Assembly (NCBI GenBank): GCA_001780275.1
Contig: MFGB01000007.1
Span: 66,280-130,279, forward strand
Source: Candidatus Falkowbacteria bacterium RIFOXYA2_FULL_47_19
GTDB lineage: Bacteria > Patescibacteriota > Patescibacteriia > Patescibacteriales > UBA12075
Reading direction: 5' to 3'
Length of the DNA: 64,000 nucleotides
The translations under genes and the position numbers were made by a program. The notes under the pieces are model-generated. The model made no database searches. It saw only the letters and a list, made by a program, of their open reading frames with translations, and was not told the DNA's origin. Position 1 is the first letter of the stretch, and each line of letters begins with the position of its first letter. Of the stretch, positions 1 through 46,189 are shown in pieces.

Positions 1-552
1 GCGGTCATAAGTGGATAAAGCAATCCCGTCCGCGTCTTCATATTTGCAGACAGTAATCGATGAAGAGTTTATCTCGGCCTGGCGATTGCCGAAATGCAGA
101 CTGCTGATATTCTGTCCGGCCTGCAGATTAACCATGTGTTTCGTGGGGTCGTCCTGGTTCGGGTAAACTATATTATTAGGATAAGTCTCTGTCCAGCCGG
201 GTTTCTGGGTTTCGGCCACGATATAATGACCGGCCGCGAGGTTATCGAAAATATAGCAGCCGAAATCGTTGGTTATGGTCGTAGTGGAAACATCTCCGCT
301 CAAAACGATCTCCCAGCCCGGGAGGATATCCGCGGTGCTGGTGCCGGTTTCATCCCAGAAACCGTCGCCATCCGCGTCATTCCATTTACAGCCTGATATA
401 GAGCTTAAAGGCGGCTCTGCCGCCACCGCGCCCTCCGGAACGACAAAAAACACGCCCACGAACGACATGTTGAAGATAAGCGTGCTTAATAGAAAAACAT
501 TGAAGAATCCCCGGATTCTTCTGGTTTTCTTGCTGAGATTTGGGATCTGCAT
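1..552 (-). CDS. Secreted surface-repeat protein, N-terminal fragment (gene continues past window start)
   Basis: The minus-strand frame is open from ATG at 550-552 down to base 1. It is absent from the ORF track because it has no stop in the window. The N-terminus MQIPNLSKKTRRIRGFFNVFLLSTLIFNMSFVGVFFVVP is a basic region plus a hydrophobic span. It is followed by CKWNDADGDGFWDE..LPGWEIVL..GCYIFDNLAAGHYIVAETQKPGWTETYP, an SdrD-B/Cna-B-like module. Confidence 0.6.
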   Translation of the reverse strand, partial: MQIPNLSKKTRRIRGFFNVFLLSTLIFNMSFVGVFFVVPEGAVAAEPPLSSISGCKWNDADGDGFWDETGTSTADILPGWEIVLSGDVSTTTITNDFGCYIFDNLAAGHYIVAETQKPGWTETYPNNIVYPNQDDPTKHMVNLQAGQNISSLHFGNRQAEINSSSITVCKYEDADGIALSTYDR

Positions 553-733
553 AGATTTGATTGTAAATAAATAATAACCAGGTTATTATTTTGTTAGTTT
601 ATAATTATGAATAATAATTTATTATAGTTAGAGCTAATTAAATTATCATTATTATAAAGTTAAAACAGCATTAATAAGCAATAAAAAAACAGCCGAACTA
701 TCAGCTGCAATATTTTTTTTGACGGAGCGCGTT

Positions 734-1099
734 CTATGCTACGGTATCGTAATGTTCAATCCGACCATTCAAGTCGTCCAAAAGAGCTTTCAGGTACTGG
801 TACGGCTCTTCATGCGCGGGGAAAGACTGAATGATCGCCTTGATCTCGTTTCTGGTATCGGCGATAAATTTAAAATTAAAATAAAAATTGCTTGTTAAAA
901 GCGTTTGGCAAAGCACTTCAATGCCGAAGTTAATGCGCGCGCACGCCAACATGCTTTCTATCCCCTCGACCGATAGCCCGTCCACGCTCTCTACGTACTC
1001 TTTAACAAGTTTTTTTATCTGTTCGACCGCTGCCATGTGCGGCAAATAGGTTAGGCTCCACTTATCACCGCTATCCCCGCAAATAACATAACCGCCCAT
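734..1099 (-). CDS. Hypothetical protein (121 aa from internal ATG)
   Basis: This is track ORF 734..1141. The ATG at 1099 (MGGYVICGD...) is preceded by AGGAGG, so the upstream 14 codons look like a spurious extension. No family was recognised. Confidence 0.5.
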   Translation of the reverse strand: MGGYVICGDSGDKWSLTYLPHMAAVEQIKKLVKEYVESVDGLSVEGIESMLACARINFGIEVLCQTLLTSNFYFNFKFIADTRNEIKAIIQSFPAHEEPYQYLKALLDDLNGRIEHYDTVA

Positions 1100-1240
1100 C
1101 TTACGCCTCCTGTCAATTATTGTGATTACAAAGAACTTCAAAAAATGTCATCCTCGCGCGGACGGGAATTCCGGCTCGAAGAAAAGCCCGAATTTCCGCC
1201 CTCCGTAAAAATAGCATCCTTTATTAAAAATTAAAATACT

Positions 1241-4200
1241 CTATAAGTTATACGCCTTGCGCTTTATAAGCGCGCTTGCGCCGGTAAGTCCTCCGACCAT
1301 CATAATGAGGGCCATAAACTCGAAGACGCTGAATCCCGTTTCGGCCAACACTTCTATTTCCCGAACCTCAAGGTCGGCCATGGCCTCGAGCGGTTTATGG
1401 TTATCGGATCTTATCGTGGCGGTATTGACGTATATTTTTTCCGCGGCATCGTCGATGACGTTCGCGAAATAAGTGATTTCCCCGGTTTCGCCGGGTAGAA
1501 GGTCTCCGACCGCCCATTCCCGGGTGGTCGAAGCGGTATCGGCGTAAACGATCCCCTCGGGAAGAATATCCTTGATAATGACGTTAAAAGCGGTCAAATT
1601 GCCGGTATTGGCGTAATTGATCACATATTTGAAATTCTTATCCCCCGGATTATAGAACGATTTCTCGTCTGGAATGACCTTCGTGATAGAAAGTATCGGG
1701 TCCCCTTCTTCGCCTTTGACCTCGACGCAGGCGTCGGTCTTGTATTTGACGGTTTTCTCGGTCTTATCCGATCCTTCTTCGGCCTTGGCCGTAAAGGAGT
1801 ATTCGGTATAAGGCTTTAAGCCGCCGATCGTGGTCGAATGCAGGGTGCTTTCCGTGGTCGTGTCGGTCGAGGTGGCGTCTTTAATATCGTCGGAATCAAG
1901 GCCGTAAACGACCCAGCTGGTTACTGTCTTGTTAGTGCGCCACTCTATTTTAGCCGTATTCTCATCAATGCACTTAGCTTCTATTTCCATGATATCGAGG
2001 AAAACATGGCCTCCGCCGCCTCCGCCGCCGCCCGGCAGTTTGCAATACCGACAACCGTCCGTCTGATCGCTATTAGCATCATCGCACTCTTCGCCGGCAA
2101 CATTAATTATACCGTCGCCGCAGTACGGCCCGCCGCCGCCCTCGGTTGAGCAGGTGGCTGAGCAGCCGTCTCCGGAAACGTTATTGCCGTCATCGCATTG
2201 TTCTCCGGGGGTGTTCCCCAGTATTCTGTCGCCGCACCTGGGCCCTTCCTCGTAATAATTATTAAAATTATAATCAAGGCCATCTTTGCCGGTATACTCA
2301 AGCCAGACATCGAAATAAAGCGGGGTGGTGTTGTGCCAATTGGTCTTTAAGACCTCGTTCACGCGGTAAGCGGCGTCATAAGGGAGACCCTGGAAACAAT
2401 AACGCCCGGTGGAATCGGTCAAAACCGGCGCCGTTACCTTTTGCCAATCGGCGCGGCAATTAACGGCGAAAAGGCCGTCAAGGTCATAGCCGTTCCCATC
2501 CGCATTCTCGTCGTTGTCATCGCTCTCGTCAACTAATTTTATATATTTTGCCCAGACTAATGTGCCTAAATCCAGCGAAGTGTCCAATGTAGCAAGACCG
2601 AGTTCGCGCCAGGTGCCGTCAATTCCTGTCGGCGAGGCGTAAACGCGCGCTTTTTCCGAGGTCGGGGCTCCGTCCGGACTGGTTTCAAAAATTTCAATGT
2701 CAGCGCCGTTGCCGTTTATGACGATATTTTCAAGCTCCAGGATGATCTCGCCGCCAAAACCCAAAGAAACGTAATTCAGGGTTTGGTCCGCTTCAGCTTC
2801 TCCTAAAGCTTTAGCGCTATCGGTATAATCGCTTGCGAGCGGATCAGAGTTACTGTCGGTTCCCTGGGTATAATTTATTACCCGGTCCGCCCAGTTCTCT
2901 CCGGCCGCGCAATCCGCCGCGGTCGACAATTCAATGGTCCAATCCGGAAGACCCTTGGTGTTGGGCGTGGCCGCATTCTTATCCTCGTCCTCGTATTTAT
3001 AGCCGCAGATCATGCCGGAATCTCCGTAAGGCCGGTTATAGAAATAGAGCTCCGCGGTCTCGCCGGCTTTAACCTCTGTTGATGTGGCGCCGTTTTCCGG
3101 GCTTAAAATTATCCACCCCTTGGTCAAAGCTGCTTCAGCGGCGTTATAAATACCGATGGGCAGGTCGGAGAGAGTGACGCAGCCGATCTCGCCGGCCGTC
3201 CGCACGGTATGCGCGCTTTGGTCGGGGTATGTGACCGTAAAGGGCCAATCGGCGACCGGATACTGATCGTCGGCCGTATTCAAATCGCCGTCTGAATCCC
3301 CGATCTTGCAGATTTTCAAATTTCCAACCTCGTGCCGGTTAACAAAATCCTTATCGGTTTCGTTGGTATTCTGTGTTGTGATAAAAATAGTGTAATAATT
3401 ATCCGGATCGATCGGGCTTACCTGCGTCCAACCGCTCTGGTTTTGTTCATAGACGTCATACCGGCCGGTACAAAGATCGTTAAAGGCGTAATTGCCGTCG
3501 TTATCGGTCGTGGTGGTGGCGTAAACGATGCCAAGATTGTCGTTCCTGAGTTCAATTACCCATCCAGACAGGCCGTTACCGGTAAAATAATCTAACTTTC
3601 GTCCGCTTATTAAGGAAGTGCACTGCTCGATGGTTTTACATTCAGTTGAACAAGTAGCTGAACCGGTCGGGCCGTGGTCGCACTCTTCTCCCGGATCTGG
3701 GTTGTAATCGCCGCAGAAAGGCGCTTCGTAATTTAAAAAGACAAAAGGCTGCAGAGCGACTGATCCGAGCGTAAAGCTATATGATCCGTTGGCCGGATAA
3801 GTATTCCGCCAGTGTCCGCTTACCGGCGCTTCAGTAATAGTATAGTCGCCGTAAATAAGGTTATCTACGCTTACGCAGGCATTATCATTCGACGTGTTGA
3901 GGGTCTGCGAATAACTATCCGGTCCGGTAACCGTGAATTCCCAGGCTAAGGGCGTATCAACGCCGCTTTCGTAAGCGCCGATCACACCATTATCGTAGTA
4001 TTTGCATATCGTAAAACCGCCGCGCCGGGTGTTATAGAAATTAATCGTCGCGCCTTGGTCTTCATCGACTATAACCGTGCCTTCGCCGTTTTCCGGGTAA
4101 ACCGGACTCCAGCTCGGATTCGGCATAGTTTCGCTGACCGTGTATTGTTTAGGGTCGAGATCGGTGAAAACGGTACAACCGTTATCTCCGGTCGTCTGGG

Positions 4201-6142
4201 TAGTAGTATGGTCTAAAGTAAAGTTCCAGCCGGGCACTATCGTCTGGTCATCGATGGTTGAGGTTAAACCGTCCACGTCAAACCATTTGCAGACCGTGAG
4301 CCAGCCTTTTTTCGGCGGGATATACTTTAATTTGCAATCCGATTCGCAGGTCCAGTTGCCGGAGAGTCCGGTGGGCATAGCCGGCCAGTCGCATTCTTCG
4401 CCCTCTCCGCCCTGGATTATGCCGTCACCGCAATAAGGACCCCTTAAAGAAATCTCACTGCAGGTGCCGGAACAATAAGTGCAGGTGCTGTCATAATCAG
4501 GAACGCATGGCAGGCCGTTTTGGCCGCCCCGATCGCATACCTCGTTCAGGTCGTAGCCGTTCGGGGTCTGGATCGTGCTGTCTCCGCAATAGGTTAAAGC
4601 GCACTGGTCGGTACAGCCGTCGGTATTATCGCCGTCTTTGCCGTCATCGCAGGCTTCCAGTCCGTTTTGAACGCCGTCGCCGCAATACGGTCCGGTTAAA
4701 GTCGTCGGTTGGCAGGTACTGGAACAATAGGTGCAGGTACTGTTATAATCTGGATCGCAAGGTGTGCCGTTTGTTCCGCCTAAATCGCAAACTTCGTTTA
4801 ATCCATTACCATTAGGGGTCTGGATCGTGCTGTCGCCGCAATAGGTTAAGGTGCACTGGTCGGTACAGCCGTCGGTATTATCGCCGTTCTTGCCGTCATC
4901 GCATTGTTCGTCGCCATTCTTGATACCGTCGCCGCAAACGGGCGGGCACTCGACGGTCGTAGTGGCGGTCGCGCAGATCCAATTATCCGGGTTGCTCTTA
5001 CTGCCGAGCTGTTCGGCCCAAGCGCAGGCTTCGTTTACGATTTCGCTGCCGCAGGCCGTTTCAGTCTTAACTGTGGTCAATATATCAACCGTATAAGACT
5101 CGCCGGGGGCTAATACGTTCTTAACCCAGACGTTATTGCCTGAAGCCGGATTCGGCACGGAAGACACGAAAGAGGTCTTGGTATCATAAAATTCTTTAAG
5201 TTCCACACCGCTCCCCGTGCAGTTAGCCGTGCCGGTGTTGGTCAGGGTTAAATTATAAGTAAGATCGCCTCCCGGCGCGACCGGATCGGGGCTGTCGGTT
5301 TTTACGAGTTCAAGTTTGCATTCCCCCGGTCCGCCGCAGAATGTTATATGACTGATACTGTTAACGTCTTTTGTTACAGTTCCGCTTGTTCCGCCCGGAA
5401 ACTCGGTATAGGTCGTGGCCGCTTTTCTTAAAATCTTGTCTACGGCCGGATTTGAGGTCCAATCGGCTGACTCATTATTGCCGCTAACGGCAGTACTATA
5501 AGCTGGGTCATGTTTATCCATGGCTTCACTCCAAGCACCCGCGTATTCCCATTTAGCCACAGTAAAATAATTCGGTCCGAATTTATCTTCGCACTCGTCT
5601 TTGTCTTCTTGCTTCGTATTCGTAAAGGTGCAGGTTATCTGTGTATCATGAGAAATTTTTAATTTTACCTTACGTTCCGAAAGATATTTTGTGACAGTAA
5701 AATTACTGTTATTACCACTGCATACTATATCGCTTAAATTCCAGCCAGGAACATCCGCCTCGGTAATATAATAATCTCCGGTACTGGTAAAGGGCAGATC
5801 GACACTATTGCCGTCAATCAAGGAAAAATTACCGTTCCAGCCGGTTGTTCCGGTTTTATTTTTAGAAAAAGCAAAAGCCTGGGTGTCACCATCCGGCACA
5901 GTTTGTTTTATAACTGTTATCGTGCCGTGACAAGCCCAAGCCTCTCCGGGCGCAACCATAAAAATACCCCCTAAAGCCATGCCGAAAGACATGTTAAGCA
6001 CAAGGAGGCTCATGGAAAATACGTTGATCGCTTTGTAAATTTTACCTTTTCTGGTGTTTAAAAAATTAGGCGCGTAATGGAACGCGTAATTAGGAGCAAT
6101 CTGCCGGGATGAAAGCAGATTGGGAGAGTATGAATCATGCAT
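1241..6142 (-). CDS. Giant cell-surface protein with LAETG sortase sorting signal (1633 aa)
   Basis: The leader is ..AINVFSMSLLVLNMSFGMALGGIFMVAPGEAWA. The body carries several SdrD-B/Cna-B-like modules, Cys-rich CGDGxxxxxExCDDGxxxxDGC repeats, an FN3-like segment, a poly-Gly run and DUF11-like repeats (NTGNLTA). The C-terminus is LAETGF plus a hydrophobic span plus KRKAYNL. Confidence 0.88.
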   Translation of the reverse strand: MHDSYSPNLLSSRQIAPNYAFHYAPNFLNTRKGKIYKAINVFSMSLLVLNMSFGMALGGIFMVAPGEAWACHGTITVIKQTVPDGDTQAFAFSKNKTGTTGWNGNFSLIDGNSVDLPFTSTGDYYITEADVPGWNLSDIVCSGNNSNFTVTKYLSERKVKLKISHDTQITCTFTNTKQEDKDECEDKFGPNYFTVAKWEYAGAWSEAMDKHDPAYSTAVSGNNESADWTSNPAVDKILRKAATTYTEFPGGTSGTVTKDVNSISHITFCGGPGECKLELVKTDSPDPVAPGGDLTYNLTLTNTGTANCTGSGVELKEFYDTKTSFVSSVPNPASGNNVWVKNVLAPGESYTVDILTTVKTETACGSEIVNEACAWAEQLGSKSNPDNWICATATTTVECPPVCGDGIKNGDEQCDDGKNGDNTDGCTDQCTLTYCGDSTIQTPNGNGLNEVCDLGGTNGTPCDPDYNSTCTYCSSTCQPTTLTGPYCGDGVQNGLEACDDGKDGDNTDGCTDQCALTYCGDSTIQTPNGYDLNEVCDRGGQNGLPCVPDYDSTCTYCSGTCSEISLRGPYCGDGIIQGGEGEECDWPAMPTGLSGNWTCESDCKLKYIPPKKGWLTVCKWFDVDGLTSTIDDQTIVPGWNFTLDHTTTQTTGDNGCTVFTDLDPKQYTVSETMPNPSWSPVYPENGEGTVIVDEDQGATINFYNTRRGGFTICKYYDNGVIGAYESGVDTPLAWEFTVTGPDSYSQTLNTSNDNACVSVDNLIYGDYTITEAPVSGHWRNTYPANGSYSFTLGSVALQPFVFLNYEAPFCGDYNPDPGEECDHGPTGSATCSTECKTIEQCTSLISGRKLDYFTGNGLSGWVIELRNDNLGIVYATTTTDNDGNYAFNDLCTGRYDVYEQNQSGWTQVSPIDPDNYYTIFITTQNTNETDKDFVNRHEVGNLKICKIGDSDGDLNTADDQYPVADWPFTVTYPDQSAHTVRTAGEIGCVTLSDLPIGIYNAAEAALTKGWIILSPENGATSTEVKAGETAELYFYNRPYGDSGMICGYKYEDEDKNAATPNTKGLPDWTIELSTAADCAAGENWADRVINYTQGTDSNSDPLASDYTDSAKALGEAEADQTLNYVSLGFGGEIILELENIVINGNGADIEIFETSPDGAPTSEKARVYASPTGIDGTWRELGLATLDTSLDLGTLVWAKYIKLVDESDDNDENADGNGYDLDGLFAVNCRADWQKVTAPVLTDSTGRYCFQGLPYDAAYRVNEVLKTNWHNTTPLYFDVWLEYTGKDGLDYNFNNYYEEGPRCGDRILGNTPGEQCDDGNNVSGDGCSATCSTEGGGGPYCGDGIINVAGEECDDANSDQTDGCRYCKLPGGGGGGGGHVFLDIMEIEAKCIDENTAKIEWRTNKTVTSWVVYGLDSDDIKDATSTDTTTESTLHSTTIGGLKPYTEYSFTAKAEEGSDKTEKTVKYKTDACVEVKGEEGDPILSITKVIPDEKSFYNPGDKNFKYVINYANTGNLTAFNVIIKDILPEGIVYADTASTTREWAVGDLLPGETGEITYFANVIDDAAEKIYVNTATIRSDNHKPLEAMADLEVREIEVLAETGFSVFEFMALIMMVGGLTGASALIKRKAYNL
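4433..4936 (-). repeat. Tandem 2 x 252-bp (84-aa) Cys-rich module duplication inside the 1633-aa gene
   Basis: CGDGIKNG.. starts at aa 403, CGDGVQNG.. at aa 487 and CGDGIIQG at aa 571. At DNA level gatcgtgctgtc recurs at 4571 and 4823, exactly 252 bp apart, with long near-identical runs. Confidence 0.85.
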
Positions 6143-6302
6143 AAGAAACGTCAGGCATATAATTTAAAAATAAATTATGCCTATATGAATAATTAATTAA
6201 AATGATTCTCTAGCTTAGCATTATTATCTCTATTTTGTCAATAGTAAAATTAAAAATTATTAAAATTTGATATTATTCTAACATTAAATAAATTAACAAC
6301 AT

Positions 6303-6338
6303 AAAAAAAACAGGCTATTTTTTAGCCTGTCATGTTTT
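6303..6338 (-). terminator. Rho-independent terminator
   Basis: Stem acaggct / agcctgt (6310-6316 / 6324-6330) is flanked by an A-run and a T-run. On the minus strand it is followed by TTTTTTTT, downstream of the small ORF at 6397..6564. Confidence 0.6.
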
Positions 6339-6396
6339 TTGGGGAAAGGGTTAATAAACTCTTTAATTTATCCGAATGTTTTTGGATGATCTTTTT

Positions 6397-6564
6397 TTAT
6401 TTTGTTGATATGGCAAGCATGCATATGCCAACCGTCAGCAGGAAATAACCCAAGTCTTCGAATTTTTTAAGTTTTGGCCAGACGCCTATACCGAATCCCG
6501 GCAGAATGAACGATATTCCTATCCAATGGCAAAGACCGAGTTGTTTAAAAAACAAAAGGCCCAT
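6397..6564 (-). CDS. Small hydrophobic protein (55 aa), not in ORF track (<60 aa)
   Basis: ATG at 6562-6564 is preceded by GGAGGG. The translation is MGLLFFKQLGLCHWIGISFILPGFGIGVWPKLKKFEDLGYFLLTVGICMLAISTK, which has two hydrophobic spans. It has its own terminator at 6303-6338. Confidence 0.4.
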   Translation of the reverse strand: MGLLFFKQLGLCHWIGISFILPGFGIGVWPKLKKFEDLGYFLLTVGICMLAISTK

Positions 6565-6673
6565 ATACCCTCCTTCTTTATATTTTACATGAAGTCCGCA
6601 GCTTATATTTACTTATACGCTTAAAAAGGGATTCTATTACACTAAAAATTAAAAAAATAAATACTTCCTGTTC

Positions 6674-6702
6674 GTAGAGACGCCCCGCCGGGGCGTCTCT
6701 AC
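6674..6702. repeat. 29-nt palindromic element, copy 1 (GTAGAGACGCCCCGCCGGGGCGTCTCTAC)
   Basis: It is a perfect palindrome and one of four copies in the window. It is followed by cgaggcggtgcatgggatagag, which resembles the flank of copy 2. Confidence 0.85.
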
Positions 6703-6734
6703 GAGGCGGTGCATGGGATAGAGGTAAAAAAATT

Positions 6735-6770
6735 AAAAAACCCGATAGTTTGATCGGGTATTTTTTGGTT
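6735..6770 (-). terminator. Rho-independent terminator after 6782..7432
   Basis: Stem cccgat / atcggg (6741-6746 / 6753-6758) has an A-run and a T-run on either side. Confidence 0.65.
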
Positions 6771-6781
6771 CTTTTTTGAGG

Positions 6782-7432
6782 TTATTTTTTGGGAATATGT
6801 TTCTTAAGCTCTTGCAGTTGCTCAGGGGTAAGGTCTTTTATCCCCTCTCGGATGGTGTCAGTATCCTGTTTAGCTTCCTGTTTTTCCCTTTCCTGGACGT
6901 TCTTGGCGCGCACTTCTTTCTGTGCGCCAGTTTGAGTCAGGGGCAGTGACAGGTTCTCAAAGGCGTGCATCGGCACGACATCGCGGTCTGAGTCGTAATA
7001 CTCTATCACTACCCGGTCGCCCGCTTGGGTCAAGGGTAATTTCACCGAAAGTTCGCCAGCCCCGCCCGTAAAGATGTGCGGCACCTCTTTCAGATGGAGA
7101 TAGTAGGTCGTGCCGGAATTCAGCGCCTCTTGATTACGCCGGTCCACCACGCCCTCTATCTTTTTGAGGACGCGCTCCTTGTCCAGAACGACCTGCTGAC
7201 CGCCCCGCATGATAAGTTTTTCGTATTCGCGCAAGGCTTCGTATTGGTCGTTGCCGACCGCTACGGTCTGGATATTATTGATGGAAACTATTGCCACCCC
7301 TTGAAAGGCGTGGCTTTCGTTTAAAAGCGGTACTACACTGGCCATCGTCCCATAGACGTTATAAAGCTGGGGATCAACGCCGTGGAGCTTTTTATACTCG
7401 ACATGGCTGTTCTTGTTGACCGCATCCAGCAC
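6782..7432 (-). CDS. Hypothetical protein, probably the C-terminal part of the gene at 7475..8614
   Basis: This 216-aa ORF has only a GTG start and no convincing SD. It is in the same frame as 7475..8614, and the 14 codons between them contain no stop other than the TAA at 7475-7477. Confidence 0.5.
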   Translation of the reverse strand: MLDAVNKNSHVEYKKLHGVDPQLYNVYGTMASVVPLLNESHAFQGVAIVSINNIQTVAVGNDQYEALREYEKLIMRGGQQVVLDKERVLKKIEGVVDRRNQEALNSGTTYYLHLKEVPHIFTGGAGELSVKLPLTQAGDRVVIEYYDSDRDVVPMHAFENLSLPLTQTGAQKEVRAKNVQEREKQEAKQDTDTIREGIKDLTPEQLQELKKHIPKK

Positions 7433-7474
7433 GGCGGCATCGGTAGAACCGCCCCTGACCGTATAACGGACGGA

Positions 7475-8614
7475 TTAGCCGGTCCGGGAATTGGTGTACA
7501 CGACGGCGATCAGGGAGTCGTCTTTACTGCTCTGTGAGGTTATACCCGTCACCCAATCCGCTTGTCCCTCCGATCCGTAGATCAGGTTCGGCGTTTCCGG
7601 CTGGGTAATACCCCTCCCTCCCCACCAGGTATTCTTCCAGCCGTGGACATATTTACCGCTCCAGGTCAGATAGTTTTCAATGAAAGACCGCGGCACGGCC
7701 CGGTCCACCCAATCGGGAATTTTGTCTTGGGGAAAAAATTCCGGGTCGCCGCTTGCCGGATCAACGATTACTACTCCGGTAATCTTTTCTCCGCTCCACA
7801 TGATCGTGGGCTTATAAGCGGTAACGACCCACCAGGCCTTGCCATTTTCGTCTATTTCAAAAGTGTAGTCAACCAGGCCGGTGTTTAAAAAACCGCTGTT
7901 GCGCAAATGCCTTTCCAACTCGTTCCAGAAGAAGGCGCCCGGCGTATACTGCATTTTTTCTTTATCCGGGAGCATCTTGAGGACTGCTGGACGATGCGGA
8001 TCTTCGCCGTGGACCATGATATAGCCCGGAACGCCGTCGGTAGAGGTCCAGACGGAAATTCCGCCGTAATCCAGGGGCACGACATACCACAGCTCGTTAT
8101 TGATCCTCTGGAGCGTCATAAGGCCCTCGGAAATCTGAAATTGGCTGCCGACAGCGCCGGCCTCGCCCAGGACTTTTTTCGCGAGATAAACCGCGTTTTC
8201 GGTCGTGGACATCCGCATATGTTTCGGGTCTTTGGGCTGGACATCCTGGGTCCAGACCCTTTCTTCCATCGTCCCGATCATATTCTTGTAGTCGCTGGCG
8301 CGGAACATTCCGCTGCCCAAAGTACAGCTGCCCATATAGATAAGCGCCGTGAAAATAGGAAAAAACGCGACGTAGGTAAATTTACCCTCTAAGATCGCGT
8401 CAATTATTGCAGCCGCTATCCAAAGCAGAAAAACCATGAATCCCGGAATTCCGCCCAGCGGATACACCGTTGAGGGGGTTGATAAGTAAAGAATTCCCCA
8501 AACCAGCCATAATGAAATTACCCCCGTATAAATGGCGGCTTTTACTTTTTTGTTGACGAGCAAAGGAAGTACTCCCAGAACCGTGCAGATAATGGCGGCT
8601 ATAAATACGTACAT
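7475..8614 (-). CDS. Polytopic membrane protein with extracytoplasmic domain (379 aa), possibly truncated by an in-frame TAA
   Basis: The N-terminus has about 4 hydrophobic spans (MYVFIAAIICTVLGVLPLLV.., ISLWLVWGILYL.., FMVFLLWIAAAIIDAIL.., FFPIFTALIYMG). A large soluble domain follows. No family was recognised. Confidence 0.75.
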   Translation of the reverse strand: MYVFIAAIICTVLGVLPLLVNKKVKAAIYTGVISLWLVWGILYLSTPSTVYPLGGIPGFMVFLLWIAAAIIDAILEGKFTYVAFFPIFTALIYMGSCTLGSGMFRASDYKNMIGTMEERVWTQDVQPKDPKHMRMSTTENAVYLAKKVLGEAGAVGSQFQISEGLMTLQRINNELWYVVPLDYGGISVWTSTDGVPGYIMVHGEDPHRPAVLKMLPDKEKMQYTPGAFFWNELERHLRNSGFLNTGLVDYTFEIDENGKAWWVVTAYKPTIMWSGEKITGVVIVDPASGDPEFFPQDKIPDWVDRAVPRSFIENYLTWSGKYVHGWKNTWWGGRGITQPETPNLIYGSEGQADWVTGITSQSSKDDSLIAVVYTNSRTG

Positions 8615-8829
8615 TCTAATCTCCTTTCTTTGGTTTACTTGGTTGGCAAGCTATAAAATGATTGTCCCCCGAATAATCCTCCCTTCTTTTTTTCTATTAT
8701 TAGAAAAATAAGCTTGTCTATTTTAATTGGGTTATCAATGATCTAATAAACTATTATTTCACATTTTGAAGATTTTGTCAAGATTTTATCACGAATTTCC
8801 TCCACCCCTAAACCCCGCAGACGCCCACG

Positions 8830-8858
8830 GTAGAGACGTTGCATTGCAACGTCTCTAC
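8830..8858. repeat. 29-nt palindromic element, copy 2 (GTAGAGACGTTGCATTGCAACGTCTCTAC)
   Basis: It has the same outer arms, GTAGAGACG/CGTCTCTAC, as copies 1, 3 and 4. The inner part differs but is still self-complementary. Confidence 0.8.
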
Positions 8859-8887
8859 GAAACGGGGCATGTGGGAAAAGATTAAAC

Positions 8888-8921
8888 AAAACCCCGCCCG
8901 GCAAATGCCGGGCGGGGTTTT
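8888..8921 (-). terminator. Rho-independent terminator after 8940..12716
   Basis: An 11-bp stem ccccgcccggc / gccgggcgggg has an aaat loop. On the minus strand it is followed by TTTTGTTT. Confidence 0.8.
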
Positions 8922-8939
8922 AAGTATCTAAACCACTGT

Positions 8940-11900
8940 TTACGCTTTTACATCTCCGAATTTAAGGCCCTTGGCCATACCGAATAAACCGAGAACGGCC
9001 AGGATAAGGGTTAAAAGTTCACTCAGATCAAAGCCGGTTTCAGCCAGGACAGCGACGGCCGTCACTTCTAAATCGGCGGTAGCTGTCACGTCAGCGGCGC
9101 TATTATCGGCTTTCACGGTGGCCGTATTGGCATAAGTTTTAGCCGCGGCCTCATTATTGACGTTCACGGTATAGGACATTTCCTTCTTTTCCCCGGCAGC
9201 CATATCGCCGATCGTCCAGGTGCGGGTTAATTCCTCCATATCGGCAAAAACTAAACCGGCTTCAAGCGTATCGGTCAAAACCACGTTGGCGGCGATGACG
9301 TTACCGGTATTGGTAACGGTCAGGGTATATTTGACGCCGGTATCGCCCGGATTAGCTTTTTCGCGATCAACGGTTTTGGCAAGGGTCAGGATAACTTCAC
9401 TCGCTTCGCCTAATACCGATACCGAGATCGGTTCCGGATTCTCGACCGGGGCCGAACCGGCTTCTCCGGTCTTGTATTCCACCTGCTTGCCGATTTTCTC
9501 CGGCGAAGCGGATGATACCGGCCGGAAATAATAGGTCGTATTCGGAGTTAATCCGGTGATCGTTACCGAATGTCCGGTCACGTGTTCTTCGTCTAATTCA
9601 GTTGACCACTGGTAGCCGTAATTCGGGGCCGATTCCCCGGATACGTCCGGATGGCTGACCGTATCGTAAAGCACGCGTGAAGTGCCCGGTTTGTTGGTAA
9701 GCCAGGTAATAGTAATATAATCTCCGCTCAGTTCATTGGCTCTTTCGTTATAAAGCGTAAGCTCGGAGGGCAACCAGCCGCTCCCGCCCGTTTGCTCTTC
9801 CTTGGCGTATTCACAGCTCTGGTCATTGTTAGTGGCGTTCGGATTATAATTAGTGGCGGAAGAATCAGTACAGCCGTAAACCGGTTCATAATGATTCAGG
9901 AAATAAACTTCAGCATAATCATCCTCGCCGCTAATTTCAACGATTATGGCGTTACCGTCCTGATTATAGCAGGTATTATTACTGCCGACCCCGGTCTGAG
10001 TCCAGCCGGCTTGTGAATCTTCGATAATAGTGTAAGTACCGTAAGGTACAATAAAATCAACACAGCCGTAATTTTCACTGTTTTCTCCCTCAGTCGCGCC
10101 GCTATCTTCATGCTCATTATCGCCGCTGATATTCATGGTCCAGCCGGCAAGCGGATGCAGTATCTGTTGCATAGTGGCCAAGGCTTCTTTGATCTTTACT
10201 GCGTTCCATATTTTATCGACGAAAGATACGTCCTGTGGCGGCGTATATTCCGAATAATCCGGGTAGCCGTCGCCATCCGTATCCTCGTATTTGCAGACCT
10301 GGATCGTGCCTGTATAGGTCGGACAAGTGTCCATATTACAATCCTGGCTGCCGGTCGGTTTATCGCCGTCGCAATATTCGTCATCAATGGTAGCGCCGCT
10401 ATCATCACGGCACTCTACGGTCCGATCCTGAGTGCCGCCGCCGCAATCGGCGCTGCAATCTCCCCATTCGCTCATATACCAGGCATAAGTCGGTTCCGGT
10501 TCAGGGCATTCAGTCAATTCTACCTGGACATCGTCAAGCAAGGTGCCATAAGAATCCGACGTGCCTAAATCGGTAAATTCCAGGTCCGTAGAATCACTGT
10601 CGGCAGTCATAGTATATTCATATTCGGTCCAGGCGGTATCGGTATTATCAGAACCATCGGCGCTTACCGTTTCGTCGATAGAGCCGAATTTTATACCTAA
10701 GCTGTTATTTGCTGAATCTGTCTCAGGGCGCGGCGAAAATTTAAAGGTAAGTTTATAAGTCGCACCGGGAATAGTGGTAATGTTTTGAGAGATAACTACC
10801 GAAGCCGCTTCGTTGCCTTCAGCCGGATAATCAGTATCAAGCTCGGCCCATTGACTGCCTTCGCCCGCGGTCCAGCCTAAACCGGTAGTTTGCAGTTCTA
10901 AATTAGCCATTTCCGGCGCGCCTTCGTCCGGATTAACCCAGGAAACGGCCCAACCTAAACCTTCTGTGCCGGAGGGATAGACCTGCCACTTGCCGTCATG
11001 TTCGGTAACGGTCGGTGTTTCAAAATCGCCATTCATTATTTTAATAGCGCCGGTTTCGCAAGCCGGAGTCTGGCAAACGGTTTCATTGGCGCAATCACTA
11101 TCGTCGCAATCTACGTCACCGTCTCCGTCATTGTCAACGCCATCAACGCAATCATCTTCTATCGGCTCTTCGCAAGCATCGCCCGCGCTGTTCCCGTAAC
11201 TATTTTCCTGGGAGGGATTAGAGATAGTCGGACAATTGTCGCAAACATTACCCACTCCATCCACGTCAGAATCTTCCTGGCCCGAGTTAGCGACCGAAGG
11301 GCAATTATCGCAGGCATCGCCTTTGCTGTCCCCGTCAACATTAACTTGGTCCGGATTGGCAGTACTGGGGCAATTATCCTGACTGTCGCAAACGCTGTCT
11401 TCATCCGCATCCGGACAAGCGCAAACCGAATCGGAGCCGTCGCAATCCTGATCCATGCCGTCGTCGCAAACTTCCTCGGCTCCGGGATTAACGGAACCGT
11501 CATCATCATCGCAGTCGTCGCCGCCGCATGCTAAATTAAGATAACCGTCGCCATCTAAATCCAGATTATCGGTTATGCCATCGCAATCATTATCTACCCC
11601 ATCGCCGCAAACCTCCGCGCCCGTAGCAGTGCATTCATCGCAAACGTCGCCCTGTCCGTCTTGATCGCTGTCGGCCTGGTCTGTGTTGAAAACCATAGAA
11701 CAATTGTCGCAGGCATCGCCCAAGCCGTCGTCGTCGCTATCAAGCTGGTCGGCATTGGCGGTTGAGGGGCAATTGTCCGCACAATTTGCATCTCCGTCCC
11801 CGTCAGCATCAAAACCTTCGTCAATCGCGCCGTCGCAATTATTGTCAATACCGTCGCAAACTTCCTTGGCCCCGGGATAAACAGAACCATCGTCATCGTC

Positions 11901-12716
11901 GCAATCACCGCTACAATCGCTATATCCGTCACTGTCATTATCCGGCTCATCAACGGTTTCGCTATTACAATCGTCATTAATGCCATTGCAGGTTGTTTCC
12001 ATGGCCCCCGGATTGATTGCCGGATTATTATCGTCGCAATCCGCGCCATTCGTGCAATTCTGGCCATAACCATCGCCGTCATCATCAATGCAAACCGGGG
12101 CTGGCGTATAATAAACTTTTACGCGCACCTGGTCTACATACAAAATACCGCCATTATTATTACCGTTAGCATCAAGAAAAATTCTAAACTTATTATCACT
12201 AAAATCACCTAATGACCAGGTTCTGCCCCATTTATCTGTCGCGCCCCCAAGAGGACTAACGTTGTCAGAATATGGATGCGAGGAATCTTTGTGTACGTTG
12301 GTTGTTTTACCAGACGTAACATGCGAACCACCATCCCAAGATATCTTAACGTCAGCCTGTCTTGTGTTAGAGGTGTATCCCTCTACTTGAACTTCAATGC
12401 CGTTTATTGTGGCTCCGGCCGGAATGGAAAAACCAAAATTTTTATAAAAAATCTTGTCATTAGAGGAATCAGCTGATGCCCGATGATTATCAGAGGAATA
12501 TACGTATGTCGGGTTTACCCAACCGCCACCAGTATTGCCCTCATTTCCCGTAGGCGCTTTAAATCCGCTATCCGCCGCCTCTACCGTCGGCGCGACAAAA
12601 AACACGCCCATTAACGACATGTTGAAAATTAACACCGATAAGCTGAAAACGCTTAAAAGCTTATAACCGCCCTTTTTGATGCGCTCCAGGCGATAAAAGC
12701 CCATTTTTTTATGCAT
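8940..12716 (-). CDS. Giant cell-surface protein with LAETG sorting signal (1258 aa)
   Basis: The leader is KLLSVFSLSVLIFNMSLMGVFFVAPTVEAA. The body has Cys/Asp-rich CDDxDxxxxPGAxExCDGxDxDCDG motifs, thrombospondin type-3-like DxDxDGxGDxCDNC repeats and a DUF642/choice-of-anchor-C-like region (NGDFETP..GWAVSW). It also has one TSP1-like repeat, an FN3-like segment and a DUF11-like repeat. The C-terminus is LAETGF plus a hydrophobic tail. Confidence 0.88.
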   Translation of the reverse strand: MHKKMGFYRLERIKKGGYKLLSVFSLSVLIFNMSLMGVFFVAPTVEAADSGFKAPTGNEGNTGGGWVNPTYVYSSDNHRASADSSNDKIFYKNFGFSIPAGATINGIEVQVEGYTSNTRQADVKISWDGGSHVTSGKTTNVHKDSSHPYSDNVSPLGGATDKWGRTWSLGDFSDNKFRIFLDANGNNNGGILYVDQVRVKVYYTPAPVCIDDDGDGYGQNCTNGADCDDNNPAINPGAMETTCNGINDDCNSETVDEPDNDSDGYSDCSGDCDDDDGSVYPGAKEVCDGIDNNCDGAIDEGFDADGDGDANCADNCPSTANADQLDSDDDGLGDACDNCSMVFNTDQADSDQDGQGDVCDECTATGAEVCGDGVDNDCDGITDNLDLDGDGYLNLACGGDDCDDDDGSVNPGAEEVCDDGMDQDCDGSDSVCACPDADEDSVCDSQDNCPSTANPDQVNVDGDSKGDACDNCPSVANSGQEDSDVDGVGNVCDNCPTISNPSQENSYGNSAGDACEEPIEDDCVDGVDNDGDGDVDCDDSDCANETVCQTPACETGAIKIMNGDFETPTVTEHDGKWQVYPSGTEGLGWAVSWVNPDEGAPEMANLELQTTGLGWTAGEGSQWAELDTDYPAEGNEAASVVISQNITTIPGATYKLTFKFSPRPETDSANNSLGIKFGSIDETVSADGSDNTDTAWTEYEYTMTADSDSTDLEFTDLGTSDSYGTLLDDVQVELTECPEPEPTYAWYMSEWGDCSADCGGGTQDRTVECRDDSGATIDDEYCDGDKPTGSQDCNMDTCPTYTGTIQVCKYEDTDGDGYPDYSEYTPPQDVSFVDKIWNAVKIKEALATMQQILHPLAGWTMNISGDNEHEDSGATEGENSENYGCVDFIVPYGTYTIIEDSQAGWTQTGVGSNNTCYNQDGNAIIVEISGEDDYAEVYFLNHYEPVYGCTDSSATNYNPNATNNDQSCEYAKEEQTGGSGWLPSELTLYNERANELSGDYITITWLTNKPGTSRVLYDTVSHPDVSGESAPNYGYQWSTELDEEHVTGHSVTITGLTPNTTYYFRPVSSASPEKIGKQVEYKTGEAGSAPVENPEPISVSVLGEASEVILTLAKTVDREKANPGDTGVKYTLTVTNTGNVIAANVVLTDTLEAGLVFADMEELTRTWTIGDMAAGEKKEMSYTVNVNNEAAAKTYANTATVKADNSAADVTATADLEVTAVAVLAETGFDLSELLTLILAVLGLFGMAKGLKFGDVKA

Positions 12717-13037
12717 ATTTTTCTATATCCCGCCCCGAAATTCATAAAAATATGAACTATGGACGGAAATTATTTATAAAAAATTTTAACGAATAAATAA
12801 AAAACAGCCCCTCGTGCTTTCATCGTAGGACAATCAAGGCTTAATCCTATTATTACATATTTTTAAAAATCAAGCAATATTCAAGTAACTTTAATCAGAC
12901 AAGAAAAGCCCTGTTGGGCTTTTCGCAGTCCGCCTCGGGCGTGATCGGTTATTAGCTCGCCACACTCAACAAACCTTAGTTATAAAAATCACAAAATATT
13001 GAAATTCCTTTACGATAAAAAGCCGATATTTATTATC

Positions 13038-14666: not shown

Positions 14667-14859
14667 TTTAGCCGGCAGGGCGCGGTTTTTATCTGAAAGA
14701 TTTTTTTGAAATAAGCTAGAATTCTCATAACATTAGATTGGTTTTCTCCTTGTTTGATTAAAATCACATTAACACAGTCGAAAAAATAAGTCAATATCCG
14801 AAAATACAAAAAAACGCTTGAGAGATCAAGCGTTTTTAAGTTATTTTAAACGAAAATAT

Positions 14860-17304: not shown

Positions 17305-17479
17305 ATTTTTTTACCTTAAAGATAAAAAACCGCCAAAAGAGGCTTTTTTGCCCCTTAAAAAATTTCGGTCGTTTATCCACAATTAATATATAAACTTCTA
17401 TTATTTTATCAGAAATAAAAGGCCATGTCTAATAAAATCAGGAAATAATACTATGCGCGCGATAAATAAAAAATTGATT

Positions 17480-18625: not shown

Positions 18626-18749
18626 ACTAAAAAATATTATCTAATTATACCAAGCGAACGCTTCTACTGCGCGTGCATTTTATTACTGTATCACAATATC
18701 CCTGCCCGCCGGCAGGCAGGCAATATCTAATATCCAATTATATTTATCA

Positions 18750-19919: not shown

Positions 19920-20023
19920 ATCATGATTTTTTATTTAAAAAACAAAAAAAACTAAAAAATAAAAATCCAGCTAACCACTTCGCCACGGCCAACAACGCCG
20001 TGGTTTTTTATTTAAAAAAAGTT

Positions 20024-20051
20024 AAATGTCAATTGTCAAATGTTAATTGTC
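20024..20051. repeat. Heptamer array (AAWTGTY) x4
   Basis: The array reads aaatgtc aattgtc aaatgtt aattgtc. It ends 4 nt from the wbaP-like stop codon at 20056-20058. Confidence 0.85.
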
Positions 20052-20055
20052 GTTA

Positions 20056-43879: not shown

Positions 43880-44482
43880 ATGAAACGTCTCGCGCTTATT
43901 ATCACCATCATCATCGCCATCATCGCTCCCTTGTCCCCTGCTACGGCCTGCGACGGCCCCAACTGCGACACCATCACTGGCGCCTCTAACGGCACCGTGG
44001 ACACCAGCCAATGGATGAGTCTCAACAAGGAGGCTTTGTCCGACGGCTGGAAATTTATGGCCGATGGCGGACAAAAAATCACGGGCCAGGGCCATGCCGG
44101 CTACGGCCTCTCTGTCGCCGGCAAGGGCGAACTTAATCAGGCGCACTGGATGAATAACCAGGCCGCCACGCCCAACGCCAACGTCTGGCATATGGACGCG
44201 GCGGACATGACGCTCAAGGCCGGTGCCGAAACCGGCGGCAGGTGCGCGGATTTCAAGATTGAAGCCGCCGCTAACCGCTCGGCTACGACCGAAACCCATG
44301 CTGGCGAAAACAGCATGTCTGCCAAGACGGGACACGCCGTCGACGCTTCATTCAGCGTCAAGGGCGCCAATCCGTCAGCCGCGGTTGATATCAGGAGTCA
44401 AACCGAATACCTTCAGATACCTACCAAATTCCAGGGCTATCAGACCGGAATAAGCGAGATTATTATCAAGGGCAACCGCTAA
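43880..44482 (+). CDS. Secreted hypothetical protein (200 aa)
   Basis: The RBS is AGGAG. The signal peptide is MKRLALIITIIIAIIAPLSPATAC. The protein is Gly/Ala/Asn-rich, and no family was recognised. Confidence 0.75.
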   Translation: MKRLALIITIIIAIIAPLSPATACDGPNCDTITGASNGTVDTSQWMSLNKEALSDGWKFMADGGQKITGQGHAGYGLSVAGKGELNQAHWMNNQAATPNANVWHMDAADMTLKAGAETGGRCADFKIEAAANRSATTETHAGENSMSAKTGHAVDASFSVKGANPSAAVDIRSQTEYLQIPTKFQGYQTGISEIIIKGNR

Positions 44483-44550
44483 CCGATATTTAACGGTCTG
44501 ACAGCCCGCAGGCTGTCAGACCGCTTTACCACCACCCGAAAGGATAAAGC

Positions 44551-46157: not shown

Positions 46158-46189
46158 CTCGCGCCCAATCGCACAAAACAATTTCACAC

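Follow-up and report, generated by a model that had tools for sequence, protein, structure and literature searches.

A conserved leader of sortase-anchored adhesins in Patescibacteria with a hairpin-forming core

The stretch of DNA analysed here (the window, 64 kb of a contig from a very small groundwater bacterium, Candidatus Falkowbacteria) carries four adhesin genes, A to D, all on the minus strand. Three conserved N-terminal segments had been described in A, B and C by an earlier note; translation of the minus strand returned exactly the quoted strings, with many stops on the plus strand, confirming that the three proteins share a leader that must be read on the minus strand. The genes and their sorting signals are as follows.

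1–552, minus strand: adhesin A, N-terminal 184 aa of a gene that runs off the window edge; an NMS leader, then an SdrD_B-like domain
1241–6142, minus strand: adhesin B, 1633 aa
1244–1348, minus strand: sorting signal of B, LAETGFSVFEFMALIMMVGGLTGASALIKRKAYNL
8940–12716, minus strand: adhesin C, 1258 aa
8943–9047, minus strand: sorting signal of C, LAETGFDLSELLTLILAVLGLFGMAKGLKFGDVKA
13038–14666, minus strand: adhesin D, 542 aa, with an LPETG anchor at 13041–13142

Adhesin B comprises SpaA_4, DUF7507/CLIPPER_2, DUF4215 Cys-rich repeats, SpaA/SdrD_B, fn3-like and DUF11/CLIPPER domains and an LAETG anchor, and adhesin C is composed of MopE/TSP3 metal-binding repeats, DUF642 (choice-of-anchor C), TSP1, fn3-like and DUF11/CLIPPER domains, again with an LAETG anchor. 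The genes with the shared leader are tandem paralogues with common C-terminal modules. B and C end in the manner of LAxTG sortase substrates, where the LAxTG motif is followed by a hydrophobic helix and then a basic C-terminal tail; here these are VLAETGF, a TM segment and a basic tail (LAETG...IKRKAYNL in B, LAETG...KGLKFGDVKA in C). An orthologue of A (L013) is 868 aa long, is 93% identical across the 184-aa part of A and has an LPETG C-terminus. The leader of D is ordinary or degenerate (MFKTAKSIKFSLIILFLLTSGIFFLGVKAVSA) and has neither NMS nor the hairpin described below, as expected from the earlier statement that the fourth adhesin lacks the motif; within the window, N(M/L)S(F/L/M) in a hydrophobic N-terminus was found in A, B and C only. 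The three leaders were delimited as follows.

418–552, minus strand: leader A, MQIPNLSKKTRRIRGFFNVFLLSTLIFNMSFVGVFFVVPEGAVAA, with a basic n-region, an h-region of ~25 aa and an A-V-A site (earlier-noted segment, 436–510)
5933–6142, minus strand: leader B, 70 aa, with a long n-region containing the PNFLNTRKGKIYK box, the h-region AINVFSMSLLVLNMSFGMALGGIFMVAP and the site A-W-A↓C (earlier-noted segment, 5945–6031)
12573–12716, minus strand: leader C, MHKKMGFYRLERIKKGGYKLLSVFSLSVLIFNMSLMGVFFVAPTVEAA (earlier-noted segment, 12588–12662)

The h-regions of A, B and C share the consensus ..(I/F)YK.(I/L)N(I/V)FS(M/L)..L(I/V)(F/L/I)NMS..GVFFVAP, followed by a predicted AxA cleavage site, and their n-regions are basic (KKTRRIR, RKGKIYK and RIKKGGYK), the n-region of the family ending in (I/F)(Y/F)K. 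The same layout was found in 48 distinct leaders, with an h-region of about 22–25 residues (up to 28 in A, B and C), which is longer than usual, and with information peaks at K-13, F-8, L-3, I/V-2, NMS and GVFF, so that the fixed residues of the h-region are F-8, L-3, (I/V)-2, N0-M-S and G+5-V-F-F. In nearly all members, GVFF is followed by a Pro or helix break and then, 5–9 residues on, by a small-x-small site, the candidate cleavage sites being AVA↓A, AWA↓C, VEA↓A, AQA, ASA and similar. The n-region is extended in roughly one leader in four by an additional box upstream, (V/I)(N/D)F(L/V), and the B-type leader also occurs in P0002, P0003, P0005 and P0013. Variants of the NMS triplet, namely Q-S-S / Q-I-S, HMS, NMT and NIS, are present among relatives.

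A basic n-region, a hydrophobic h-region and small residues at -3 and -1 give these leaders the layout of Sec/signal peptidase I substrates. They do not resemble type IV prepilin or class III signals, as there is no conserved Gly -1 and no Glu+5, a Lys falls within the would-be mature helix, and AxA follows the h-region; nor do they contain a lipobox, since A and C have no Cys and the B-type sites (A-W-A↓C / A-L-A↓C) have no Leu at -3. The leader would thus be a long signal peptide of the Sec/signal peptidase I type, with Sec dependence, export and cleavage as predictions. The length of the h-region would also suit a membrane anchor.

A profile made from the three leaders scores 89–100 bits on proteins A, B and C, and its search against 1.84e9 representative proteins (E ≤ 1e-3) produced 39 hits, 38 of them N-terminal leaders of this kind and the other repeat junk, a result that places the likeness of the three N-termini beyond chance. 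All 25 complete carriers among the 38 end in LA(E/A/V)(T/S)G or LPxTG, a TM segment and a basic tail, mostly with LAETG, and the same holds for 35 of 35 when all complete carriers are pooled (LAxTG or LPxTG), so the complete carriers are sortase substrates without exception, and the motif was found on no other kind of protein. The suggestion that the leader belongs specifically with LAETG C-termini was not borne out: five of the 35 carriers, including the orthologue of A, have LPxTG, and LAxTG proteins bearing other leaders were also found. Degenerate-DNA scans of 185,579 species genomes identified eight true loci; these lie in 7 genomes, all of them Patescibacteria (Falkowbacteria, Parcubacteria), and another 13 loci came from metagenomes. 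Altogether there are some 50 different carriers, with less than 50% identity among the proteins and with unrelated mature N-terminal domains (VWA, MopE, SpaA_4, DUF642 and others).

Searches of five leaders against Pfam and NCBIfam gave no match at E ≤ 10, the full proteins likewise had no YSIRK/GS match, and none of the YSIRK, KxYKxGKxW, ESPR, SipW-cognate or Tat models matches the leader. Rfam (E ≤ 1) gave no match at the leaders within positions 1–15000 of the window. A word-index protein search with the leader alignment returned two candidates, neither of which scored, and one with the C-terminal CLIPPER+LAETG module returned a single hit. On the evidence of the searches made, the leader is previously undescribed, specific to Patescibacteria and confined to sortase-anchored adhesins, and what is new here is a leader family that no Pfam, NCBIfam or Rfam model covers.

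The closest known counterparts are leaders reserved for particular surface proteins. Like the YSIRK/GS signals (TIGR01168 / PF04650), to which the NMS leader had reasonably been likened, it is long (~40–50 aa) and has a conserved motif, is confined to certain sortase-anchored surface proteins with unrelated mature domains (the restriction to sortase substrates holding in all 35 complete carriers), and coexists with other sortase substrates of the same genome that have ordinary leaders, D being the case in point. The motif itself is different, however, as is its place, which is within the h-region and not at the n/h border; YSIRK HMMs do not match NMS leaders at E ≤ 10, the (Y/F)SIRKxxxGxxS motif is absent, the hosts are Patescibacteria and not Bacillota, and the anchor is mostly LAxTG. 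We know of no conserved mRNA hairpin in YSIRK leaders. The KxYKxGKxW (TIGR03715 / PF19258) and ESPR (PF13018) leaders are also specialized and found on very large or repetitive surface proteins, and the n-region of the NMS leader, ending K-(I)-Y-K, recalls KxYK, although K-x-Y-K is all that is shared: there is no GKxW and no HMM match. ESPR, for its part, belongs to Gram-negative type V secretion and its HMM gives no match; accessory Sec genes were not seen here. In its proposed function, the NMS leader would resemble YSIRK/GS leaders and also the extended signal peptides that very large autotransporters carry. At the other end of the protein, LAETG, TM segment and basic tail in B, C and most family members are as in class E sortase substrates, which carry LAxTG, e.g., the chaplins of Streptomyces (PMC5148588). 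Unlike those substrates, five of the 35 carriers have LPxTG, the sortase encoded beside one family member scores below the class C, D and E cutoffs, and the NMS leader is not known from actinobacterial LAxTG proteins.

Codon usage at the invariant residues indicates how the leader has been maintained. Phe-8 is encoded by TTT or TTC (12 and 9 leaders), Leu-3 by six codons, and Ser+2, in the hairpin loop, by TCT, TCG, TCA and TCC (8, 5, 5 and 3), so synonymous sites are randomized at Phe-8, Leu-3 and Ile-2, the invariant residues outside the core, and at Ser+2. Every Ser-7 codon is AGY and every Ser+2 codon TCN, a sign of common descent, and the randomization at most invariant residues argues for long-term purifying selection on the peptide and against a recent duplication. 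These codon patterns show that the peptide motif is held by purifying selection across ~50 proteins with unrelated mature N-termini.

The core of the leader is also a nucleic-acid element: the codons for N-M-S (AACAUGUC) and those for G-V-F (GGCGUGUU) form the arms of an 8-bp hairpin, AACAUGUC-N7-GGCGUGUU, followed by UUUU, in which the 7-nt loop falls on the two variable residues. Two such structures lie in the window, in leaders A and C, beside a hairpin of the B type; all three were folded, and the first two were also covered by a terminator-like scan and synonymous-site tests.

445–471, minus strand: hairpin and U tract of leader A, AACAUGUC-GUUCGUG-GGCGUGUU-UUUU; stem 471–449, U tract to 445
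12597–12623, minus strand: hairpin and U tract of leader C, AACAUGUC-GUUAAUG-GGCGUGUU-UUUU; stem 12623–12601
5958–6009, minus strand: B-type hairpin at 5966–6009, then AUUUUUAU at 5958–5965

The scan picked out the hairpins at both A and C, where 8 pairs, 3 of them G-C, a loop of 7 and the tail TTTTG fall within the structural definition of an intrinsic terminator (a stem of ≥ 5 bp containing ≥ 3 G-C pairs, a loop of 3–8 nt and a U-rich tail). As in intrinsic terminators and in hairpin pause or attenuator sites of the pyrBI type, a sense-strand stem-loop is directly followed by a U tract inside translated sequence, here in the 5′ coding region ~75–150 nt into the ORF. In contrast to pyrBI-type attenuation, the hairpin lies in the signal-peptide codons of a structural gene and not in a separate leader ORF, and in contrast to true intrinsic terminators its stem is weak (two of the eight pairs being G.U) and belongs to no Rfam family; it is a candidate pause site or terminator. 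Single hairpins reach only -8 to -11 kcal/mol (z ~ -1.5 against dinucleotide shuffles) and are weaker than the real terminators of the genome in the same scan. The B-type hairpin, with an inner stem CAUGUC-UUUC-GGCAUG and an outer stem GCCUCCU/AGGGGGU, reaches -18.7 kcal/mol (z -2.9), and in an orthologue (L011) a GGG-to-GGA change converts a U.G pair in it to U-A. The hairpin is missing from the divergent leaders L032, L034 and L036 and from the Q-variants.

In a synonymous recoding test, the mean MFE was -6.4 kcal/mol as against -2.3, 17 of the 21 leaders falling in the lowest 5%, and several codons are frozen (observed versus expected: AAC, 16 vs 6.8; GGC, 18 vs 7.9; GTG, 18 vs 4.0; the two codons of TTT TTT, 20 and 21 vs 15). 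Only stem and U-tract sites are frozen in this way, the first loop base being free, and 28 of the 29 leaders with G-V-F-F have TTT TTT, where ~53% would be expected. The prediction held in six leaders obtained independently through their protein ids (GTG in 6/6, TTT TTT in 6/6, GGC in 5/6). Pairing was found in 97.3% of cells, with one C-G to U-A double synonymous change, at a hairpin where true covariation is nearly impossible to see, as the peptide, too, constrains the two arms. The codon statistics thus show that synonymous sites of the stem and U tract are under selection. Since the NMS and GVF codons pair and only stem and U-tract synonymous sites are frozen, the core appears to be dual-coded, for a signal peptide and for a terminator- or pause-like mRNA element. 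The earlier reading of NMS as a conserved protein motif therefore stands insofar as a family-specific leader motif is real, and needs amendment insofar as its conservation has a second cause in the arms of the hairpin.

Several other readings of the core were considered and set aside. A programmed frameshift at U6 with a defined product is not indicated, as the -1 and +1 frames end randomly with no conserved peptide, and pairing of U6 with A-rich n-region codons or the ribosome-binding site gave inconsistent partners, GGCGUG always pairing with the NMS codons. No overlapping ORF on either strand is common to A and C, and a DNA uptake sequence or genome-wide repeat was rejected because GGCGTGTTTTTT occurs in the 64 kb only in the two leaders. 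An N-glycosylation sequon (N-x-S/T as NMS, NMT or NIS, with a glycosyltransferase cluster adjacent) is unlikely, given that the Asn would sit mid-membrane and that HMS and Q-S-S variants break the sequon.

A nucleic-acid element (an attenuator, pause, RNA–protein binding site or mRNA localization tag) could be the principal cause of the invariance of NMS..GVFF, the peptide being a generic signal peptide that tolerates the hairpin codons, with Asn present since its AA has to pair with UU in a Phe codon. Non-synonymous positions fix six of the eight stem pairs, which makes the amino-acid motif self-complementary, the frozen synonymous sites are confined to stem and U tract, and the hairpin outlives peptide changes, from GV to YM in L039:9673 (AACAUGU/ACAUGUU) and from GV to GM in the B type (a GGCAUG arm within a longer stem, plus U5). 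Yet NMS/GVFF is kept where the hairpin is destabilized (MFE 0 to -2.9 in L006, L008, L016 and L039:7195), relatives without a hairpin keep (Q/H)-x-S-x-x-G in register, and at K-13, F-8, L-3 and I/V-2 the residue hardly varies while synonymous sites are free, and we consider so exclusive a role for the RNA unlikely. A dual code is a further proposal, tentative and less probable than not: NMS..GVFF may be both the intramembrane motif of a new class of sortase-substrate signal peptide and an intragenic pause or attenuator hairpin that couples transcription to the ribosome, or else localizes or regulates the message, with the polar Asn serving both codes.

The remaining explanations fare worse. 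An origin of the likeness in recent duplication, in gene conversion or in a shuffling of cassettes that took the 5′ end with it, with no special function, would agree with the tandem paralogy of the genes, with their common C-terminal modules and with the identity of the A and C cores at 35 of 41 nt; the flanking DNA of the A, B and C leaders does not align, however, core-adjacent synonymous sites are saturated across genomes while the residues are invariant, the leader sits on unrelated mature domains in the ~50 carriers, and the near-identity of A and C is accounted for by the family-wide hairpin constraint, so that by sequence comparison this explanation is already largely refuted and very improbable. 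An uncleaved N-terminal signal-anchor, holding precursors or mature proteins at both ends, would suit a hydrophobic stretch of 22–25 residues, the length of a TM helix, with the Asn, Ser and Gly typical of helix–helix contact motifs, but it is improbable in view of the Pro or helix break and small-x-small sites beyond GVFF and of the normal removal of the N-terminal signal from sortase substrates. Neisseria opa genes have repeats in their signal-peptide region that act as an on/off switch, and the T6 tract could similarly be a slipped-strand contingency site, kept as TTTTTT because one-base changes switch the adhesin off and on. The excess of TTT TTT and the nature of the carriers, surface adhesins being the usual phase-variable class, fit such a site; six T are short for efficient slippage, though, the frozen GGC, GTG and AAC are left unexplained, the alternative frames have no conserved product, and gene C has an identical in-frame tract in three independent assemblies, all of which makes a contingency site highly doubtful.

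Neither a sortase nor a signal peptidase was found in the 64-kb window, which also has no TLxTC ORF, and no conserved partner gene was found; one carrier (L037) has a sortase gene directly downstream, for which the models of classes C, D and E each give ~67–70 bits, below their cutoffs. The ORFs between B and C (6782–8614) were rejected as dedicated partners, having no family match and being absent from a syntenic Falkowbacteria contig, as was a SipW-type peptidase, which is near carriers in only 2–3 loci, always beside TasA-like genes, and absent from the window. The N-domain of a TPR membrane protein had no match in Pfam, NCBIfam or PDB.

The best explanation overall, and probably the right one, is that the leader is the export signal of a Patescibacteria-specific family of sortase-anchored adhesins, with a putative pause or attenuator hairpin in its core. 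These would be very large fibrillar adhesins, in which variable adhesive domains are followed by a CLIPPER/DUF11 stalk and an LAxTG or LPxTG anchor. The polar face of the h-region (N/Q/H, S, G) may be recognized within the membrane by a targeting factor, for which the translocon or YidC, a signal peptidase and the sortase are candidates, or by the C-terminal anchor helix of the same protein, which contains Glu, and such recognition could hold or route precursors of 600–2000 residues until the C-terminal sorting signal is processed. The weak terminator-like hairpin, in turn, might be a transcription pause or attenuator that is melted by a closely following ribosome, in which case transcription of the multi-kb adhesin genes would continue only while the message is translated.

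Most Patescibacteria (CPR) are epibionts that have not been cultured, and attachment proteins lie at the heart of how they live; to our knowledge, almost nothing is known of surface-protein sorting in these organisms. A diagnostic leader, as an HMM or a DNA pattern, provides a handle on one class of their sortase-anchored fibrillar adhesins, and can be used to seek its partner, be it a sortase, a peptidase or the translocon, and to give annotations to hypothetical proteins. It also carries a caution, in that an odd invariant residue in a signal peptide need not mean recognition by a protein. The embedded hairpin is a clean natural case in which a peptide code and an RNA code overlap within a signal-peptide region and, if it is a pause or attenuator site, would show how bacteria with small genomes police the transcription of very long genes.

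The resemblance that the earlier note had described among the N-termini of three adhesins is real. Translation of 436-510, 5945-6031 and 12588-12662 on the minus strand yields exactly the three peptides in question, the plus-strand reading being interrupted by stops, and these are the N-termini of the large minus-strand ORFs A, B and C. A fourth adhesin, D, had rightly been set apart as lacking the motif, and combines an LPETG C-terminus with a different leader.

Features of the window that bear on the NMS leader
1-552, minus strand: ORF A, which runs off the window and off contig MFGK01000017.1 too (assembly GCA_001778255.1, to which the window corresponds with an offset of 324 nt)
471-449, minus strand: terminator-like site in leader A (consensus scan: 8 pairs, 3 G-C, loop 7)
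1241-6142, minus strand: ORF B, 1633 aa
6782-8614, minus strand: two ORFs between C and B, one for a multi-pass membrane protein (379 aa) and one for a protein of 216 aa
8940-12716, minus strand: ORF C, 1258 aa
12623-12601, minus strand: terminator-like site in leader C (consensus scan: 8 pairs, 3 G-C, loop 7)
13038-14666, minus strand: ORF D, with an LPETG end
14860-21480, minus strand: TPR protein, directly upstream of the adhesin genes, and glycosyltransferase and Bac_transf genes

B and C both end in VLAETGF, a hydrophobic helix and a basic tail. The window adhesins are multi-domain fibrillar adhesins, made up of SpaA/SdrD_B prealbumin-like, Cys-rich DUF4215, MopE/TSP repeat, DUF642 and fn3-like domains with a C-terminal DUF11; this domain, which forms isopeptide-bonded stalks in fibrillar adhesins, is now named CLIPPER (bioRxiv 10.1101/2025.04.25.650565). 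The sorting signals at 1244-1348, 8943-9047 and 13041-13142 and the C-termini of P0001-P0038, proteins from the leader profile search, have an extended motif in common, (V)L(A/P)ETGF-x3-E-(F/L), in which a Glu is conserved where the anchor helix begins; D, which is without the NMS leader, shares the motif. Elsewhere in the window, a 705-aa DUF11/DUF7619 protein (27466-29583, minus strand) when inspected at both ends, shows neither an apparent signal peptide (N-terminal) nor an apparent sorting signal (C-terminal), and thereby differs from the other CLIPPER proteins.

A profile of the three leaders, which scored 89-100 bits on its source proteins, was run by exhaustive hmmsearch against 1.84e9 representative proteins (E<=1e-3) and gave 39 matches, one of them repeat junk and the other 38 lying within residues 1-76. 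All 25 complete proteins among these 38 carry a C-terminal sortase signal: LAETG in 14, LAESG in three, LAATG in two, and LAASG, LAVTG, LPATG, LPQTG, LPETG and LPITG in one each. When a degenerate DNA pattern for the leader, with every third codon position left free, was scanned through single genomes of 185,579 species, nine stretches were found; eight are real leaders and come from seven MAGs with Falkowbacteria, Parcubacteria or Patescibacteria group in their titles, and the ninth lies in a tiny ORF of a Gammaproteobacteria MAG and matches by chance. Metagenome contigs yielded 18 stretches (11 new leaders, five repeats of known sequences and two chance matches in tiny ORFs), and ten further loci were added by protein id. 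With all complete carriers pooled, every one of the 35 is a sortase substrate (30 of LAxTG type and five LPxTG), and the leader is not exclusive to LAETG. The mature N-terminal domains that follow are mutually unrelated (VWA, MopE repeats, SpaA_4, DUF642, LTD and others). The consensus of 48 distinct leaders reads K-(I)-(Y/F)-K-x-(I/L)-(N/S/H)-(I/V)-F-(S)-(L/M)-x-x-L-(I/V)-(F/L/I)-N-M-S-x-x-G-V-F-F-(V)-(A)-(P). Pfam and NCBIfam gave no match to the leaders, even at E<=10, and no description of them was found in the full-text literature. We regard the leader as a genuine and specific class of signal peptide on sortase substrates, and one that has apparently not been described before. About a quarter of leaders have an extended n-region with a second box, (V/I)(N/D)F(L/V), 8-12 residues ahead of YK; this occurs in B (6040-6070, reading PNFLNTRKGKIYK) and in P0013, P0016, P0023, P0024, P0030, P0032, P0035-P0037 and P0039.

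Recent duplication with conserved flanking DNA would count against the earlier note's reading of the resemblance, but the DNA flanking the A, B and C leaders does not align. In 21 distinct leader DNAs, with residues counted from the Asn of NMS, Ser+2 is encoded by TCT (8), TCG (5), TCA (5) and TCC (3), Phe-8 by TTT (12) and TTC (9), and Leu-3 by six different codons, and yet Ser-7 is AGY and Ser+2 TCN throughout. Such randomisation of synonymous codons at invariant residues, together with the constant codon class of the two serines, shows that the leaders descend from one common ancestor and have been maintained by purifying selection through long divergence.

The core of the leader, from NMS to GVFF, is also constrained as RNA. 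Its G-V-F-F codons are GGC, GTG, TTT and TTT in 18, 18, 20 and 21 of the 21 DNAs, against a window-wide usage of 44% for GGC, 22% for GTG and 52% for TTT. In partition-function folds GGCGUG is paired with a probability of ~1 in nearly all sequences, its partner being the NMS codons, in a hairpin 5'-AACAUGUC-(7 nt)-GGCGUGUU-3' followed by UUUU, the loop comprising the third Ser-codon base and two variable residues. With each 27-mer recoded synonymously at the codon frequencies of the ORF it belongs to, the mean MFE was -2.3 kcal/mol versus the observed -6.4, and 17 of 21 sequences fell in the lowest 5%. Tested individually, the three synonymous positions with the strongest constraint all lie inside the stem: the last base of AAC (16 against 6.8 expected, p 3e-5), of GGC (18 against 7.9, p<5e-6) and of GTG (18 against 4.0, p<5e-6). 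Constraint is weaker at both Phe codons in the U tract (p 0.005 and 5e-4) and is not seen at the loop position, at Phe-8 or at Ile-2; the flanking Ser-7 is biased as well (AGC 10 vs 3.0, p 4e-5), at least partly because it is always AGY. Standard pairs make up 97.3% of stem cells, and the sole double change, C-G to U-A in two loci (L006 and L016), is silent in both arms. In a prospective test on six extra leaders, obtained by protein id and independently of any DNA pattern, GTG and TTT TTT were found in 6/6 and GGC in 5/6. Among all G-V-F-F leaders with DNA, the counts are 24/29 for GGC, 26/29 for GTG and 28/29 for TTT TTT.

Peptide and RNA can be separated. At four leaders (L006, L008, L016 and L039:7195) NMS/GVFF is intact though the stem is destabilised (MFE 0 to -2.9), and relatives without the hairpin keep (Q/H)-x-S-x-x-G in register, as in L040:7276 (VLQSSFFGVLLP) and L037:1247 (VMQISLGSLLL). 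Conversely, in L039:9673 the peptide is NMSFVYMFLF, with GGC GUG replaced by UAC AUG, and the stem persists as AACAUGU/ACAUGUU, 7-8 bp Watson-Crick, with its U-rich tail. The B-type leader has GGCAUG after a 4-nt loop, within a longer stem (5966-6009; -18.7 kcal/mol, z -2.9), then AUUUUUAU, and in its orthologue a U.G pair has become U-A. A peptide kept without the RNA, and an RNA kept through peptide change, argue from sequence comparison that the core is probably dual-coded. The D leader (KFSLIILFLLTSGIFFLG; 14565-14666) and the Q-I-S and Q-S-S leaders (L037 1247-3751; L040 7276-10761) resemble degenerate NMS-leader relatives without a hairpin, and head proteins of LPETG or LAATG type.

The 814-aa TPR protein has C-terminal TPR repeats and a polytopic N-domain with no match in Pfam, NCBIfam or PDB; after it come two genes for GT4 glycosyltransferases and one for a Bac_transf protein (phosphoglycosyl transferase). 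The cluster may be a surface-glycan or adhesin-glycosylation module. At least three other genomes have a TPR-protein homologue beside an NMS-leader adhesin (L008 3618-6248, L038 934-3426, L011 7173-8000). In a Candidatus Falkowbacteria MAG, the syntenic contig JAZDLN010000051.1 carries counterparts of D, the TPR protein and A with 91-97% identity, by which the window is assigned to Falkowbacteria (Patescibacteria/CPR). An LAATG adhesin with the NMS leader has a 220-aa sortase (TLFTC) immediately downstream of it, at L037 8303-8965; TIGR01076 gives the sortase 74.6 bits, and class C, D and E models score alike, all below cutoffs. SipW-type signal peptidase genes (SGSM(E/Q)PAI) and TasA/camelysin-like genes (Peptidase_M73, ..FFSDTE.. 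leaders) occur within a few kb of NMS-leader adhesins at several loci (L032/L033 1-2875; L040 232-636; L012 1-3127). Farther along the window, 46375-51255 (minus strand) encodes a protein of 1626 aa that is extremely rich in charged residues (K/E), lacks a signal peptide, and has hydrophobic segments internally and (I)REVP repeats towards its C-terminus. Plus-strand genes for an OmpA-like protein and a small lipoprotein-like one lie in 44001-48000, where G+C reaches 53-55% vs ~47% for the window.

The leader has the layout of a Sec/SPase-I signal peptide, with a basic n-region, a long h-region, Pro and an AxA-type site, and among complete carriers it is limited to sortase substrates. A dedicated SipW-type peptidase was judged less likely, the window holding no SipW-type gene, nor any TasA/camelysin-like gene; so were the two ORFs at 6782-8614 as partners, which have no family match and, being missing at the same place in JAZDLN010000051.1, look like an insertion. 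An N-glycosylation sequon as the reason for NMS, a frameshift site in the core and a slippery T6 phase switch in the T tract were likewise considered less likely. The idea that NMS is a recognised targeting motif survives in part: the leader is specific and conserved on sortase substrates, but the triplet itself is accounted for, in part at least, by an RNA structure.

We infer that a conserved polar face of the long h-region could be recognised in the membrane, and that this would hold or route the precursors, which are very large (580-2058 aa), until the action of sortase, by the same logic as YSIRK/GS or extended signal peptides. The hairpin and U tract lie 75-150 nt from the start of the ORF, form a weaker structure than the true terminators of this genome, and would most plausibly serve as a pause or attenuator that is melted by the leading ribosome. 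Specialised leaders of sortase substrates are a kind already known; what is unusual here is the overlapping RNA element.
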